A stretch of DNA of 3,713 nucleotides from a virus (Duplodnaviria; Heunggongvirae; Uroviricota; Caudoviricetes): IMG/VR virus record IMGVR_UViG_2526164632_000034. One strand, 5' to 3'. The position numbers and the translations under genes are program-made. The notes under the pieces were generated by a model. The model had not been told where the DNA came from. It was given only the letters and a program-made list of their open reading frames with translations, and searched no databases. The first letter of the stretch is position 1. Each line of letters begins with the position of its first letter. Positions 1 to 3,713 of the stretch are shown piece by piece.

Positions 1-1002
1 TTACCCTCTATTGTCAAAAGGGTTCAATTCAACAGCAGCCTCTAAATGACCTGGAGCAAAATGCGCATAACGCATAGTCATTTTTATATCGCTATGCCCC
101 AGTATTTTTTGCAACACAAGAATATTTCCGCCCCGCATCATAAAATGACTGGCAAACGTGTGACGTAGCACATGAGTTAATTGCCCATCAGGAAGCTCGA
201 TCTTCGCTCTCTTAATTGCAGCGTCAAAAGCCTCATAACATGGTGAAAATAGCGCTCCTCGTTTTTTAGGAAGCATAGCCTGCAATTGAGGTGAAATCGG
301 TACAGTGCGGTTCTTCTTTCCTTTAGTTTTAACAAATGTGATTCGACCGGGCAGTACTTGAGATTGCTTTAATCCTTCTGCTTCACTCCACCGAGCACCA
401 GTCGCAAGCCCAATACGGACAACAACCCCCAAATCTTTATTCCGTGACTCATCACACGCAATCAGAAGGCGTTCAATCTCATCTACATACAGAAACGCCA
501 GTTCCTTTTCTTCCTCACGAAACTTGCGAATACCAGTCAGGGGGTTTTCACCAGACCACTCCCCAAGGCGCTTCAGTTCGGCAAAAACAGCATGTAGATA
601 TGACTGCTCGCGATTAACGGTTGCTTCACTAAGTTTTTTCTTCCCCTTGGGATTCCATTCTCCTGATAGCCTTCTTTCCCGATAAGTAGCAAACATATTT
701 TTGTCAAACTGCGAAGCAAATGGATCTCCCAGCCTGGAACAAATCGCCTCAAGTTTGACTTTGCGCTCTGCACCAGAGGACAAGGTTTTACCGTACATCT
801 CAAACCAACGAGCAATCAACTCAGAAAGACGAGGACCAGAACCATCTTGAAACTCGTCTCCAACTCTACTATTCATTAAACGGCGCTCATAAGAGAGCGC
901 CTCACTTTTTGTCGCAAACTGTTTACGAATGCGTTTTCCCGATGCCCCGTAGGGATAACATTCGCAAAGCCATTTACCTGATGGAATCTTACGAACCGAC
1001 AT
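1..1002 (-). CDS. int: P2-family prophage tyrosine integrase (site-specific recombinase), 333 aa
   Basis: Full-length ORF with stop at 1..3. N-terminus (GKRIRKQF..KSEA) and catalytic-domain blocks (LATGARWSEA, RITFVKTKGKKNRTVPIS, HVLRHTFASHFMMRGGNILVLQKILGHSDIKMTMRYAHFAP) match my recollection of phage P2 Int nearly block for block, including the R..H-x-x-R..Y catalytic residues. The start codon lies 5 nt after the upstream stop with no Shine-Dalgarno. Confidence 0.9.
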   Translation of the reverse strand: MSVRKIPSGKWLCECYPYGASGKRIRKQFATKSEALSYERRLMNSRVGDEFQDGSGPRLSELIARWFEMYGKTLSSGAERKVKLEAICSRLGDPFASQFDKNMFATYRERRLSGEWNPKGKKKLSEATVNREQSYLHAVFAELKRLGEWSGENPLTGIRKFREEEKELAFLYVDEIERLLIACDESRNKDLGVVVRIGLATGARWSEAEGLKQSQVLPGRITFVKTKGKKNRTVPISPQLQAMLPKKRGALFSPCYEAFDAAIKRAKIELPDGQLTHVLRHTFASHFMMRGGNILVLQKILGHSDIKMTMRYAHFAPGHLEAAVELNPFDNRG

Positions 1003-1007
1003 TTTAG

Positions 1008-1355
1008 TTACTTATCACATAAATCAAATGCAGCCTTAGTGACATCCCCCAGACTCTTTTTTAACCCTGGGGCGGCATCATTATCTAGCCAAAATGGATT
1101 ATTGTTATCTAACGGTAACGCACCAAATGTTTTACCTTTTATTCGAGCCAAACCTGTAAGTGCATATAACTTATTATCGTCAAAATTCATTACATAAGGA
1201 TTACCATCAAGACACTGTAATTGAACCTCATCAGTATTAAATGGCCACACCCCATTGAAACTCTCACGTTCAATGGTTTTAAAAGGCATTGCGACGGCGG
1301 AAAAAGAAAACATAGATAAAAAAGTAACTAATAGTTGAACCTTTTTAACTTTCAT
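1008..1355 (-). CDS. Secreted (periplasmic) YebY/DUF2511-like protein, 115 aa
   Basis: N-terminal signal peptide MKVKKVQLLVTFLSMFSFSAVA with an AxA signal peptidase I site and no lipobox cysteine. Two Cys (QLQC and FDLCDK at the extreme C-terminus) suggest a periplasmic disulfide. The blocks WPFNTDEVQLQC, GNPYVMN and C-terminal LC resemble E. coli YebY as I remember it. Good SD (GAGGT, about 6 nt spacer). Hand counts of two 60-nt samples give about 32-38% GC, lower than neighbouring genes. Confidence 0.6.
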   Translation of the reverse strand: MKVKKVQLLVTFLSMFSFSAVAMPFKTIERESFNGVWPFNTDEVQLQCLDGNPYVMNFDDNKLYALTGLARIKGKTFGALPLDNNNPFWLDNDAAPGLKKSLGDVTKAAFDLCDK

Positions 1356-1384
1356 ATCATTACCTCAATTTAGCTCAAGTAAGA

Positions 1385-2035
1385 TTACAAATTAAAAAAC
1401 GCTCTAGAAATGACACCGCCTACCAAACCCCCTACGCAGATAAAGAATATTATTTCTTTTGGATAAAGTCGGATTAATTCTGAAGCACGAAGTCGGACTT
1501 CTGGTAAGGTCGAACTCTCTGTGTGGCTTGATGCCGATTGTTGCTCTAACCACGACAATGCAGACTGTAACTGAGAACGAGTAAGATCGTTTAAACGTCC
1601 TGTACCGAAATTGATATGGCAATACCGCAGAAGTTTTTGTCGAAGTCCACAGTCTTCACTGTTACGTAGTAATAAACTTACAAGAGCCTTACAGGCATCA
1701 TGATCTTTACATCGCTCAAGCATTGCATGCAGAAAACTCTCCGCTGTTTTATATTGATTTACTGTCATATCATCAATACCAGCTACACCAATCTCCGCAT
1801 GTACTTTTTGCCAAATAATAAACGCTTCAGTATTGCTAGCTTCTGCAATAGCAGCAACCAAGCTATTTAGCTCCTTACGCTGAGCCTTAAGCAAAGGGCG
1901 ATCGTCATCATCATTATTCGAAGGGATTGCGATATTGACGGTATGAGAACCATCATATCGCTCTATCTGAATATTCTTTTCGTGAAAATCACGCCCAGCA
2001 ACGCGATTGTTTGAACCGTTTGAGTTGACGGCCAT
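1385..2035 (-). CDS. Tail-anchored membrane protein of unknown function, 216 aa; candidate effector of an accessory/defence module
   Basis: Strong SD (GGGAGGTG) just upstream of the ATG, 15 nt after the upstream stop. About 190 aa of soluble domain (poly-Asp stretch NNDDDD, helical-looking middle) is followed by one hydrophobic segment at the extreme C-terminus (EIIFFICVGGLVGGVISRAFFNL). The N-terminus carries the motif NNRVAGRDF shared with the upstream regulator. I recognise no family. Confidence 0.75.
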   Translation of the reverse strand: MAVNSNGSNNRVAGRDFHEKNIQIERYDGSHTVNIAIPSNNDDDDRPLLKAQRKELNSLVAAIAEASNTEAFIIWQKVHAEIGVAGIDDMTVNQYKTAESFLHAMLERCKDHDACKALVSLLLRNSEDCGLRQKLLRYCHINFGTGRLNDLTRSQLQSALSWLEQQSASSHTESSTLPEVRLRASELIRLYPKEIIFFICVGGLVGGVISRAFFNL

Positions 2036-2050
2036 GTCACCTCCCTACTA

Positions 2051-2455
2051 TCACCTGCCCTTAGTTTCGTTATAGTCACGACCAGCGATACGGTTATTAC
2101 CACCAGAAATATTTAACTCACGTCCTGATGGCTGAGTTTCCTTTTCACTGATCGCACCTTTTAAAGCCCCAATCACCGCGTTTTTCACATCTAACGAAGC
2201 TGCTCGAAAGCGAGTAATCAACTCCTGCTCATCATCGTTATAAGTTTCAGGTGAGTGAATTCCCAACACAACATACTGAACATCAAGGCCAAAACGAGAC
2301 AGCGCTGCCAAATACGCAGCATCAGGAAAGCTATCTCCTTTCTCATATCTAAGCTGAGTTAGCTTTTTGACTCCACCAATGTCGCTCATGGCAACTTGAC
2401 TAAGTCCCAATCTTTCCCTTTCCTCACGCAACCGCTGACCAATATCATTTTTCAT
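2051..2455 (-). CDS. XRE-family (Cro/CI-type) helix-turn-helix transcriptional regulator, 134 aa; candidate prophage repressor or module regulator
   Basis: N-terminal region GQRLREERERLGLSQVAMSDIGGVKKLTQLRYEKGDSFPDAAYLAALSRFGLDVQYVVLG is a textbook HTH_XRE fold pattern. It is transcribed divergently from the rightward small-gene operon, as in P2 C/cox or 186 cI/apl switches. The C-terminal tail carries NNRIAGRDY. No peptidase S24 domain is apparent. Confidence 0.8.
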   Translation of the reverse strand: MKNDIGQRLREERERLGLSQVAMSDIGGVKKLTQLRYEKGDSFPDAAYLAALSRFGLDVQYVVLGIHSPETYNDDEQELITRFRAASLDVKNAVIGALKGAISEKETQPSGRELNISGGNNRIAGRDYNETKGR

Positions 2456-2464
2456 ACAAAAACC

Positions 2465-2493
2465 TTGACAGGTATCTTTTTTGATACCAAAAT
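2465..2493 (+). promoter_or_regulatory. Candidate rightward (early/lytic-type) sigma70 promoter
   Basis: Perfect -35 consensus TTGACA at 2465..2470, with a weaker -10-like CAAAAT about 17 nt downstream (2488..2493). It sits in the 75-bp divergent intergenic region upstream of the 68-aa ORF, which itself has no SD. Confidence 0.35.
2471..2488. promoter_or_regulatory. Candidate operator: perfect inverted repeat GGTATC-TTTTTT-GATACC
   Basis: A 6-bp perfect palindrome with 6-bp T-rich spacer lies in the spacer of the putative rightward promoter. Further GATACC/TATACC half-site-like copies occur at 2522..2527 and 2549..2554. Confidence 0.4.
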
Positions 2494-2530
2494 GATTTCA
2501 CGAGCTATTAGATGATCACAATATACCACT

Positions 2531-2737
2531 ATGAAACAAGTTCTTCACGATACCAGATCACGCATTCCGCGTAACACCGCCACAGGTCCAAGACTGGCAC
2601 TTCGGCTGTCCCTCGAGGAGCGAGCCGTCATTGATGAAATGGCAGCTAAAGAACAACGCTCATCCTCTAACATGGCGCGCATGATCTTCCTTCGCGGCCT
2701 AGAACTAACCCAGAAAGAACAAAACAAATCTTCCTGA
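2531..2737 (+). CDS. Small ribbon-helix-helix-like DNA-binding protein (Arc/Mnt/CopG-like), 68 aa
   Basis: LALRLSLEERAVIDEMAAKEQRSSSNMARMIFLRGLE fits the RHH beta-strand, helix A, helix B pattern (R-L-[ST]-x-E-E ... [ST]-x-[ST]-x-x-x-R). It is the first gene after the divergent promoter. There is no SD and an antisense ORF overlaps, so the call is moderate. Confidence 0.5.
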   Translation: MKQVLHDTRSRIPRNTATGPRLALRLSLEERAVIDEMAAKEQRSSSNMARMIFLRGLELTQKEQNKSS

Positions 2738-2753
2738 TCAAGAGGCTAGTGGG

Positions 2754-2957
2754 ATGTCAGGTATAACCATCAATATCAATGTGAATGCCCCCTATGTATC
2801 CCTGCAGAAATATGCAGAGATAACAGGTATCCCTCTTAATACATGCAAAAAGATGTTGGCTGACGGTCGAATTATTATCCGCCCCAAACGCGCCAAAATG
2901 GAAAAGCCTGAAGTAAACCTTGTGGCGATGTTAAAAGACGCTTTGACTAACAGCTAA
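2754..2957 (+). CDS. Cox/excisionase-like small HTH DNA-binding protein, 67 aa
   Basis: SD AAGAGG about 9 nt upstream. The segment PYVSLQKYAEITGIPLNTCKKMLADGRIIIR has the same arrangement as the P2 Cox N-terminal DNA-binding segment as I recall it (P-Y-x-x-F/Y-A-x-x-x-G-x-x-x-x-x-x-R/K-M-x-x-x-G-x-x-x-I), and it sits where P2-type Cox would. Confidence 0.55.
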   Translation: MSGITININVNAPYVSLQKYAEITGIPLNTCKKMLADGRIIIRPKRAKMEKPEVNLVAMLKDALTNS

Positions 2958-2978
2958 AACAATGAACAGAGCACCATC

Positions 2979-3329
2979 ATGAAAAAAAACGCTAATAATC
3001 CATACTCCAAATTTCGTAATGGCGTAGAACGCCATGTACACCACGTCGCTACCAGTGCATCACGTAGTAACAGTCGCTATAACCTGAACGAGACGCACGC
3101 AACACCGGATGGCCACGCTGTAAAACAAATCGGCGAGCATGCCTGGCTGATTGAGAAAGCTGGAATCGTGGTCCACAAATGCCCACGCAATCCGTTTACC
3201 GGAAACCGCATTTTTGCTCTAAGCAGTGGCGACAATCAGTTCGGGCAGGATTTCACATTATACGAAGCACTTCGCACGGTTGATCGTCTGCTTCGCGGGC
3301 AAAGTTTTATTAAACAGGCTGATTTATAA
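2979..3329 (+). CDS. Hypothetical protein, 116 aa (prophage early-region gene of unknown function)
   Basis: Intact ORF with a weak RBS, same strand and tightly spaced after the Cox-like gene. No family recognised from the translation. Confidence 0.5.
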
Positions 3330-3339
3330 CAGGTGCTTT

Positions 3340-3355
3340 ATGACCAAAGACCATG
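3340..3355 (+). pseudogene. Possible 5-prime stub of a prophage gene truncated by the IS2 insertion
   Basis: AGGTG SD-like sequence at 3332..3336 followed by ATG at 3340 and five codons (MTKDH) that run directly into the IS2 terminal repeat at 3356. The reading frame continues into IS2 and stops after about 21 codons. Confidence 0.25.
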
Positions 3356-3396
3356 TAGACTGGCCCCCTGAATCTCCAGACAACCAGTATCACTTA
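3356..3396. repeat. IS2 terminal inverted repeat (orfA-proximal end), about 41 bp
   Basis: Begins with the characteristic TAGACTGGCCCC...CCAGACA...TATCACTTAA end sequence. The exact inner boundary is approximate without the partner end. Confidence 0.65.
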
Positions 3397-3446
3397 AATA
3401 AGTGATAGTCTTAATACTAGTTTTTAGACTAGTCATTGGAGAACAG

Positions 3447-3713
3447 ATGATTGATGTCTTAGGGCCGGAGAAACGCAGACGGCGTACCACACAGGAAAAG
3501 ATCGCAATTGTTCAGCAGAGCTTTGAACCGGGGATGACGGTCTCTCTCGTTGCCCGGCAACATGGTGTAGCAGCCAGCCAGTTATTTCTCTGGCGTAAGC
3601 AATACCAGGAAGGAAGTCTTACCGCTGTCGCCGCCGGAGAACAGGTTGTTCCTGCCTCTGAACTTGTTGCCGCCATGAAGCAGATTAAAGAACTCCAGCG
3701 CCTGCTCGGCAAG
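3447..3713 (+). CDS. insC: IS2 transposase OrfA (InsC), 3-prime partial (first 89 codons)
   Basis: Translation [86 protein letters not shown] is essentially the E. coli IS2 InsC sequence. The frame is open to the last base of the window. Confidence 0.92.

Follow-up and report, generated by a model that had tools for sequence, protein, structure and literature searches.

Amyloid signalling pairs, such as the fungal HET-S/NWD2, the bacterial Bell/NLR pairs with the motifs BASS1-10 and the Bab/Agp pair with BASS11, carry a motif of 15-25 residues at the C-terminus of one protein and at the N-terminus of the adjacent, collinear gene product. The gaps or overlaps between the two genes are tiny. 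The motifs are rich in Q, N, G and V and poor in L, P and K, and they fall into many pair-specific families. They lie in an unstructured extension beside a folded domain and in some cases contain pseudo-repeats. These features were also found in a DNA stretch of 3,713 nt (the window in what follows) from a virus of the class Caudoviricetes, IMG/VR record IMGVR_UViG_2526164632_000034, which is the immunity region of an Escherichia coli P2-like prophage. Here, the C-terminal tail of a 134-aa protein of the XRE family, with a helix-turn-helix (HTH) domain, and the N-terminal head of the adjacent 216-aa membrane protein, called the partner below, share a short peptide. A gene-pair layout with a shared C-/N-terminal motif is that of the amyloid signalling motifs (Dyrka et al. 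2020, bioRxiv 10.1101/2020.01.06.895854) and served as the basis of their discovery, and amyloid signalling operates in E. coli in the anti-phage pair Bab/Agp (bioRxiv 10.1101/2024.11.07.622273).

The locus in the window differs from these pairs in the proteins that carry the motif and in its setting. The known pairs possess an NLR/STAND or TPR sensor (TPR-GreAB-PIN) and a HeLo, Bell or Bab death or immune effector (TIR, CHAT), none of which is seen here. Instead, the motif is carried C-terminally by a putative DNA-binding repressor of the XRE type and N-terminally by a small membrane protein. The setting is a temperate-phage immunity region in Proteobacteria, not a defence island of multicellular bacteria.

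Four other described systems are alike in part. In Bacillus subtilis, the XRE-type repressor SinR and its adjacent small antagonist SinI (and also SlrR/SlrA) share residues of the oligomerisation surface and form a heterodimer via the shared segment (PMC3163267). However, these segments are folded helical hooks, whereas the peptide in the window is disordered by prediction, G/N/Q-rich and located at the C-terminus of one protein and the N-terminus of the other; in addition, the partner is far larger and carries a membrane anchor. RstC/RstR (CTX-phi/RS1) and Qtip/cI (VP882) are alike in principle: a phage protein drives the prophage repressor into insoluble or polar aggregates. RstC and Qtip differ from the partner in that they are small and soluble, have no reported similarity to the repressor and are not co-transcribed downstream of it. 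Flk, the regulator of flagella biosynthesis in Salmonella and E. coli, has a cytoplasm-facing helical domain and a C-terminal membrane anchor, as the partner seems to have. The chromosomal Flk proteins, however, are 280-430 aa long, start with MQPxSGP..., lack the head motif and have no adjacent XRE gene, and the score of the partner against the Flk model is far under the cut-off. Lambda CI and P22 C2 have a homologous HTH domain and are alike in genomic role and position. They contain a RecA-responsive S24 domain, in place of which the XRE protein of the window has two helices and the tail motif. A different, non-SOS input is therefore implied.

No description of a motif shared by a phage or XRE repressor and its neighbour was found in full-text literature searches, including searches for amyloid, P2-like repressor and BcepMu gp17/gp18. 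An earlier note on this DNA, made from the letters alone, had stated that no described system has this feature. In these searches, the statement held for phage repressors; it does not hold for the layout, which is known from the amyloid signalling pairs. What is new is that this architecture occurs on other classes of proteins and in a different biological context.

The XRE gene (2051..2455, minus strand) is followed by the partner gene (1385..2035, minus strand). The best local alignment of the full XRE protein with the full partner is between XRE residues 114-130 (LNISGGNNRIAGRDYNE; 2066..2116, minus strand) and partner residues 3-19 (VNSNGSNNRVAGRDFHE; 1979..2029, minus strand). It is ungapped, with 10 of 17 residues identical. 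The BLOSUM62 score is 62, compared with 20.7 +/- 4.0 for composition-preserving shuffles of the termini (maximum of 48 in 20,000; z ~10). The earlier note had located this ungapped terminal alignment correctly; its count of about 11 identities in 19 residues becomes 10 of 19 on recounting. The DNA identity of the two copies is 59% over the 51 aligned nt, and the value of about 69% given previously holds for the 39-nt core. The same codon is used at only four of the ten identical residues.

In the XRE protein, the HTH domain is recognized by phrog_8 (E 2.5e-14) and by Pfam HTH_31 (E 8e-5; 23.2 bits, under the gathering score of 27). The closest solved relative of this domain is the N-terminal domain of the P22 C2 repressor (E 5e-7), and the PADLOC models gave only weak HTH-level matches. 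In the AlphaFold2 (AF2) model, which was calculated with alignments, residues 1-104 are confident and consist of the HTH domain and two helices. Residues 105-134 (2054..2143, minus strand) are predicted to form a disordered tail with a predicted local distance difference test (pLDDT) value of ~40-50, which contains the motif and a short basic end (ETKGR). The gene sits beside the early lytic operon and is divergent from it: Arc- and Cox-like genes are divergent and int is downstream in the P2-like loci, and a regulator and a transposase are divergent in the Mu-like loci. The homologues in phages KS5, KS10 and Ps59 are annotated as repressors. Because of this position and the HTH homology, the XRE protein is considered to be the lysogeny repressor of the P2-like prophage.

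An S24 (LexA-like) autopeptidase domain is absent from the 134-aa XRE protein. Two relatives of 223 aa from Halomonas and Vreelandella (L048 and L051) have the same N-terminal HTH domain, but a LexA/S24-like end (…DVEILGRCEIRIGRVV) occupies the place of the tail. Neither of them has a head-bearing neighbour gene. This shows that the tail with its partner module and the S24 domain are alternative C-terminal input devices on one repressor family.

Behind the motif, almost all of the XRE proteins have a short end rich in Lys and Arg (ETKGR, NENKK, GGSKRKK, TTRRRKTK and GRKKKREG; 2054-2068 in the window, and loci L002-L067). The head copies are without such a cluster. This end could be a solubilising "gatekeeper", a contact to DNA or membrane, or a degradation signal.

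The partner belongs to phrog_5825 (E 2e-102) and consists of three parts. Residues 1-44 (1904..2035, minus strand), which include the head motif, are the most conserved part of the family despite pLDDT values of 40-51, which predict disorder; the invariant columns are G7, N10, R11, D16, E19, I24, D28, T32, N34 and P38. Residues 45-172 (1520..1903, minus strand; pLDDT 82-94) are predicted to form a helical cytoplasmic domain. Residues 184-215 (1391..1486, minus strand) form a confident helix in the AF2 model, which seems to be a C-terminal transmembrane tail anchor, and hydrophobic C-termini are conserved in the homologues. The Flk model NF007987 matches partner residues 37-166 with profile positions 20-149 of 339 (E 8.6e-16), at 58.1 bits against a cut-off of 353. 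PF27202 has been precomputed on homologues of the partner. The Pfam search with the partner itself gave sub-threshold noise only, the search of PDB sequences gave no match, and PADLOC gave no defence family at E <= 0.1. A fold search with the partner returned only small three-helix-bundle analogues, such as the C-terminal domain of Red-beta and NinB. The modelled fold suggests a protein-binding module and gives no function.

When 1.84 billion representative proteins were searched exhaustively with a profile, only 138 relatives of the partner were returned. The phage-type members carry many classes of G/N/Q-rich heads, and the chromosomal Flk proteins are without a head. No "all-in-one" protein, in which XRE and the Flk-like domain are fused, was present among these 138 matches. 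Other loci have partners of different architecture: two transmembrane segments with a coiled coil; a Cys4 zinc-ribbon with a transmembrane segment; or a Flk-like domain followed by a coiled coil, a transmembrane segment and a small periplasmic Cys-containing domain. Partners at the upper end of the size range (260-329 aa; L012, L013, L019, L046/BcepMu gp18 and KS5 gp12) extend beyond the transmembrane segment into a short, probably periplasmic, domain with the conserved pattern C.(F/Y).G(K/E)P(Y/F)..G(S/T)...C. This suggests that some of the larger versions sense something outside the cytoplasm.

The motif is retained in both families. The head N[ST].G..NR.[AS]GRD[FY].E opens 120 of 120 listed partner homologues (at least 59% identical, from Enterobacterales), and about 50 XRE homologues end in (I/V)N(V/I)SGxGNR(V/I)AGRD(Y/F)(N/H)ExKK. 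In IMG/VR, the open reading frame (ORF) directly upstream of the partner encodes an XRE protein ending in the motif in all 80 loci retrieved, which comprise 31 distinct pairs. Conservation in each family and co-occurrence across loci, which the earlier note had proposed to examine, are thereby borne out. IMG/VR was also scanned with degenerate codons for G..NR[VIM]AGRD[YF].E, and the matches were counted in the 80 loci read. All 108 matches are terminal and none is internal. Fifty-two of them lie within 12 residues of the stop codon (48 in proteins matching the XRE HTH and four in contig-edge fragments). The other 56 lie within a few residues of the start codon, 41 on Flk-like partners and 15 on other small proteins, which have a hydrophobic segment and in some cases a Cys4 zinc-ribbon. 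The motif is strictly terminal on XRE proteins or on small, mostly membrane, proteins, and therefore it is not a common low-complexity segment of unrelated proteins, which the earlier note had named as a possible refutation.

The pair is not confined to one type of prophage. The loci of Enterobacterales and Aeromonas are P2-like, with int, cox and arc neighbours. Many other loci are transposable prophages related to BcepMu and B3, with a divergent phrog_310 transposase and phrog_1368 regulator, and with holin and endolysin genes downstream. The pair is also present in cultivated phages: B3 (ORF18/ORF20), BcepMu (gp17/gp18), KS10 (gp13/gp12), KS5 (gp11/gp12), Ps59 (gp17/gp18) and Escherichia phage 520873. 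In these phages, the two proteins are annotated as "repressor" and "membrane protein". The KS5 paper lists them as such with no further comment (PMC3091744).

When one genome per species was scanned with the XRE alignment, 80 loci were returned, and the tail and the head were found to vary together. Where the XRE protein has a different G/N/Q-rich tail, the next downstream ORF starts with that same different sequence. This is seen in the pairs from Jeongeupia (tail, TVDYGNAQIGQASAGDIVN; head, TVSFGGAQIDQAAAGDINN), Pectobacterium (tail, QIFNGDISGQFAGNQIIN; head, QEFNGTAQGQFSSRDIIN), phage B3 (ORF18 tail, ISVTGDGNRTAGRDFHE; ORF20 head, IEVTGSNNIVAGRDFIE), Pseudomonas (tail, QQFNGPVGSVTSGDVVN; head, QQFNGAVEQVAAGDIKN) and Rhodocyclaceae (tail, TVTGDINGIMAGRD; head, RVGGGVHGVLAGRD). 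In most of the other pairs, the two ORFs are on the same strand with gaps of -20 to +34 nt. For 23 non-redundant pairs (from Enterobacterales, Gilliamella, Aeromonas, Pseudomonas, Bordetella, Burkholderia and others), the sum of the own-pair scores was 946, compared with a maximum of 769 in 100,000 permutations of the partners (p<1e-5). The motif classes vary even inside one genus, such as Pseudomonas or Gilliamella, and each class matches only its own neighbour. Where an XRE relative lacks a tail of this kind, the head-bearing neighbour is missing as well, as in the Pseudomonas loci beside a response-regulator gene. The co-occurrence in 80 of 80 loci, together with this lineage-specific co-variation, supports a functional coupling of the XRE and partner genes.

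The codons of the two copies give further information. In 25 pairs, the identical residues share the codon at 115 of 241 positions, a fraction of 0.48, compared with 0.45 expected from the genes' own codon usage. Codon sharing is at the chance level, and therefore the synonymous sites are saturated. This means that the likeness has been kept by selection on the peptides, and not by gene conversion or recent duplication. For the single pair, the earlier note had already suggested selection on the peptide rather than a recent duplication. A single ancient duplication followed by independent drift does not fit either: it would leave a tail no closer to its own head than to any other, whereas the tails resemble their own head above other heads.

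Recombination, gene conversion and translational bypass between the motif segments were rejected as explanations. They need nucleotide identity; the identity is only 59%, and the codon choice is random. An explanation at the RNA level was likewise rejected: the window contains no Rfam family, and the structure predicted across the XRE/partner junction was not above chance when compared with shuffles (z = -0.04). At this junction (2036..2053, minus strand), both ORFs are in the same frame with a gap of 15 nt, and the spacer reads TGA TAG TAG GGA GGT GAC. Read-through fusion was rejected, since three consecutive in-frame stops lie between the ORFs. Beyond them, a GGAGGT that resembles a Shine-Dalgarno sequence is placed 3 nt upstream of the ATG. 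The three stops look like an insurance against a read-through fusion of the two motif copies. The gaps and frames between the XRE and partner genes differ in other loci.

With regard to the binding site of the motif, the same head class is found on unrelated partner architectures (the Flk-like tail-anchored type, the type with two transmembrane segments and a coiled coil, and the Cys4 zinc-ribbon type with a transmembrane segment). In the XRE proteins, variation is found in the tails and hardly at all in the core. For these reasons, the folded domains are unlikely to bind the motif, and the binding site of each motif is probably the other copy.

In some loci, a second downstream ORF also has a head-like start (MESGNGLTQEFNGNVGQVAGGNIYNYY in L052, 4861-5628, and ...ISVKGDRNIVAGGDIYITL in L015, 4838-5137). 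One repressor may thus be wired to two head-bearing proteins.

The composition of the motifs (814 residues) is strongly biased: Q is enriched 2.59-fold, G 2.36-fold, N 1.97-fold, V 1.72-fold and I 1.12-fold, and L (0.15-fold), P (0.41-fold) and K (0.49-fold) are depleted. This bias (Q/N/G/V/I up and K/P/L down) is that published for the BASS motifs. Both copies are conserved, yet they have pLDDT values of ~40-50 in the AF2 monomers. Two to three pseudo-repeats are present in some heads (L016, L046/BcepMu gp18 and L060).

From these features, we infer that the membrane protein controls the repressor through direct like-with-like β pairing of the tail with the head, most likely as a templated cross-β assembly; we regard the chances for and against this as about evenly balanced. 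The repressor tail and the partner head, both disordered by prediction, carry a matching peptide of 17-25 residues, rich in G, N, Q and V, and the two copies would bind like with like by stacking of β strands. In-register parallel stacking is favoured because likeness is required, not complementarity. Through the peptide, the membrane protein as sensor or controller would be coupled to the repressor as output. The coupling would probably take the form of a templated cross-β (amyloid-like) co-assembly of the kind known from the HET-S/NWD2, BASS and Bab/Agp pairs. Upon a change in the membrane protein, its heads would gather into clusters, and the clustered heads would recruit and convert the repressor tails. 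The repressor would then leave the operator, and the Arc/Cox early operon would be de-repressed. Different phages use distinct, mutually matching motif classes, which would keep co-resident prophages from cross-talk.

Several observations weigh against this model. The AF2 monomers assign no strands to either motif and leave both unstructured (pLDDT 40-50). The motifs match neither the Pfam model of the RHIM (BASS3) family nor any other model at E <= 0.1, which is a further difference from the amyloid signalling pairs; the pattern N.SG..(V/I).G..(D/N)Y appears to resemble the RHIM core. The searches with Pfam, NCBIfam and PADLOC revealed an HTH domain on the C-terminal carrier and a Flk-like helical domain with a transmembrane segment on the N-terminal carrier. 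They revealed neither an oligomerising sensor of the NLR/STAND type nor a cell-death effector, so that the logic of the known pairs is only partly mirrored. A membrane segment is present in nearly all partners, but it is lacking in those of L034, L060 and KS10 (gp12). The XRE protein is assigned as a repressor from its position and homology. Finally, both proteins are expressed from one operon in the lysogen, and therefore an inactivating interaction must be conditional.

A discrete, non-amyloid pairing similar to that of SinR/SinI or of anti-sigma factors is a serious rival to the amyloid form, although we consider it rather unlikely. The tail would be an oligomerisation element and the head would mimic it, and a reversible, stoichiometric hetero-oligomer would tether the repressor to the membrane or split its tetramers. 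All of the evidence for a direct contact between the motifs fits this as well. Sequestration of transcription factors at the membrane is established, as in Mlc/PtsG and RseA/sigma-E. Moreover, the heterodimer surface of SinR and of the antagonist encoded beside it is formed by residues that the two have in common (PMC3163267). However, antiparallel strand addition and helical interfaces need complementarity, and in-register stacking accounts best for the likeness of the two copies. Compared with a folded interface, amyloid signalling motifs are also the better fit to the composition (rich in Q/N/G/V and poor in L), to the predicted disorder and to the pseudo-repeats. In addition, the two proteins are co-expressed at roughly the same level from one operon, so that constitutive titration would abolish repression.

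The two peptides might instead not touch each other, and a common protease, chaperone, adaptor or phage protein might read both of them. The earlier note had proposed such a degron or docking tag. Peptides that are terminal, disordered and conserved typically act as recognition tags, a basic cluster closes the XRE tails, and tail-anchored proteins lie near the membrane protease FtsH. The proposal turned out to fit poorly: host proteases are conserved, yet there are many mutually different motif classes, each of which matches only its own neighbour. The third factor would need to co-vary, and no conserved third gene accompanies the pair across the P2-like and Mu-like contexts. To our knowledge, ClpX-type N- and C-terminal tags differ in sequence between the two ends. 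This explanation is therefore improbable. A conserved host factor cannot explain many orthogonal classes, and binding of the tail to the head is the most economical reading.

We also regard it as unlikely that the pair serves in anti-phage defence or abortive infection and not in the control of the prophage's own lysis-lysogeny switch. The membrane protein would then be the killing effector and the XRE protein its regulator or trigger, with the roles redistributed relative to Bab/Agp. In favour of this, membranes are the target of amyloid-signalling effectors such as HET-S and Bab, defence genes belong to the cargo of P2-like prophages, and the lysogenic operon holds genes for secreted proteins or lipoproteins of a kind able to mediate exclusion. 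However, PADLOC gave no match for the partner, and none of the loci examined has a repressor candidate facing the early operon other than the XRE protein. The motif of the partner is N-terminal and its transmembrane segment is a simple tail anchor, unlike those of the HeLo, Bell and Bab effectors. The helical domain resembles protein-binding modules of phages, not pore formers. The suggestion that the 216-aa protein is a toxic or defence "effector" thus found no support; in P2-like as in Mu-like prophages, the pair is located where the repressor is expected.

That the similarity is a relic of a duplicated junction or a split gene, with no present function, is suggested by the adjacent ORFs in the same frame in the window, but it is extremely improbable and effectively refuted by the co-variation of tail and head across bacterial orders and by the saturation of synonymous sites while the peptide was retained, the motif being invariant within each family and no fused XRE-partner protein having been found among the 1.84 billion representatives.

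If the tail and the head do pair, the locus would represent a previously unrecognised wiring of the lysogeny switch, in which a small membrane protein replaces the RecA-sensitive S24 domain as the input. In its most extended form, which we put forward as possible rather than probable, the model describes a prion-like switch. The membrane-anchored sensor would template the repressor tail into an inactive cross-β assembly, so that signals from the membrane or envelope would cause an all-or-none, SOS-independent switch to lytic growth. The module would be widespread in P2-like and Mu-like prophages (B3, BcepMu) of Proteobacteria, and the orthogonal motif classes would serve as immunity-specific wiring. 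A true pairing of tail and head would give a handle on how P2-like and Mu-like prophages that are not SOS-inducible sense the host. Signalling of the amyloid type, known from immune cell death in fungi and multicellular bacteria, would then also act in the control of transcription in ordinary Proteobacteria and in the phages that infect them. Orthogonal pairs of short peptides might also become a tool for coupling proteins. The module is present in the cultivable model phages B3, BcepMu, KS5, KS10 and Escherichia phage 520873.

Over nucleotides 1-3,355, the window shares 99.9-100% identity with a stretch of the chromosome in many E. coli strains, one of which is the enterotoxigenic E. coli strain H10407. 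At least 80% of the window is covered at one place in 504 of 5,426 complete E. coli genomes. The copy in H10407 is the left end of a P2-like prophage, and genes for a replication endonuclease, portal, terminase and P2-family capsid are located farther along. Four genes are on the minus strand of the window. The genes for the XRE protein and the partner are followed by a third gene of the leftward unit (1008..1355), which encodes a DUF2511 protein with a signal-like N-terminal sequence (Pfam PF10709, E 2e-6; phrog_2950). The last gene of this leftward (lysogenic) unit (1..1002) encodes a tyrosine integrase of the P2 type, with Pfam Int_N and Phage_integrase domains, in the P2-like prophage context of H10407. 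No terminator-like site was found in the window between the XRE gene and int.

In many loci, a secreted protein or lipoprotein is the product of the gene 3' of the partner: the DUF2511 protein in the window (1008-1355), and the genes at 4999-5687 in L006, 5076-5573 in L024 and 3592-3978 in L163. A phrog_10370 lipoprotein is encoded at this position in Gilliamella and Pseudomonas, and ORF22 of phage B3 encodes a lipoprotein. A periplasmic component may belong to the same module as the XRE protein and the partner.

Three divergent genes are on the plus strand: the early Arc-like gene (2531..2737; phrog_3431, E 1e-28), the early gene for a Cox-like excisionase/repressor (2754..2957; phrog_575, E 1e-27) and a DUF4761 gene. 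Upstream of them, a candidate early promoter of the sigma-70 type, TTGACA-17-CAAAAT (2465..2493, plus strand), is suggested by its match to the consensus. This site is placed inside a 19-nt imperfect inverted repeat (ATCATTTTTCATACAAAAA at 2444-2462 and TTTTTGATACCAAAATGAT at 2478-2496), which brackets the -35 sequence TTGACA. From its position around the promoter-like site, the inverted repeat at 2444-2496 is a candidate operator for the putative XRE repressor.

The ORF of the Arc-like gene encodes 68 aa and matches the PHROG family of Arc-like repressors, phrog_3431, end to end. In this stretch, the RefSeq annotation of H10407 has a 45-aa hypothetical protein on the opposite strand (17545-17682 in L001). 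In phage KS5, the annotated Arc-like gp10 is at the position corresponding to the Arc-like gene of the window. The plus-strand gene is probably the real one, rather than the 45-aa annotation on the opposite strand.

The identity to H10407 and the other best-matching genomes ends at 3355, and the end of an insertion sequence is found at 3356-3713 of the window. It interrupts an ORF starting at 3340, which corresponds to a "hypothetical protein" (18340-18627) in L001. An orfA-like ORF, which we take to resemble InsC of the IS2/IS3 family, begins at 3447 in the insertion sequence.

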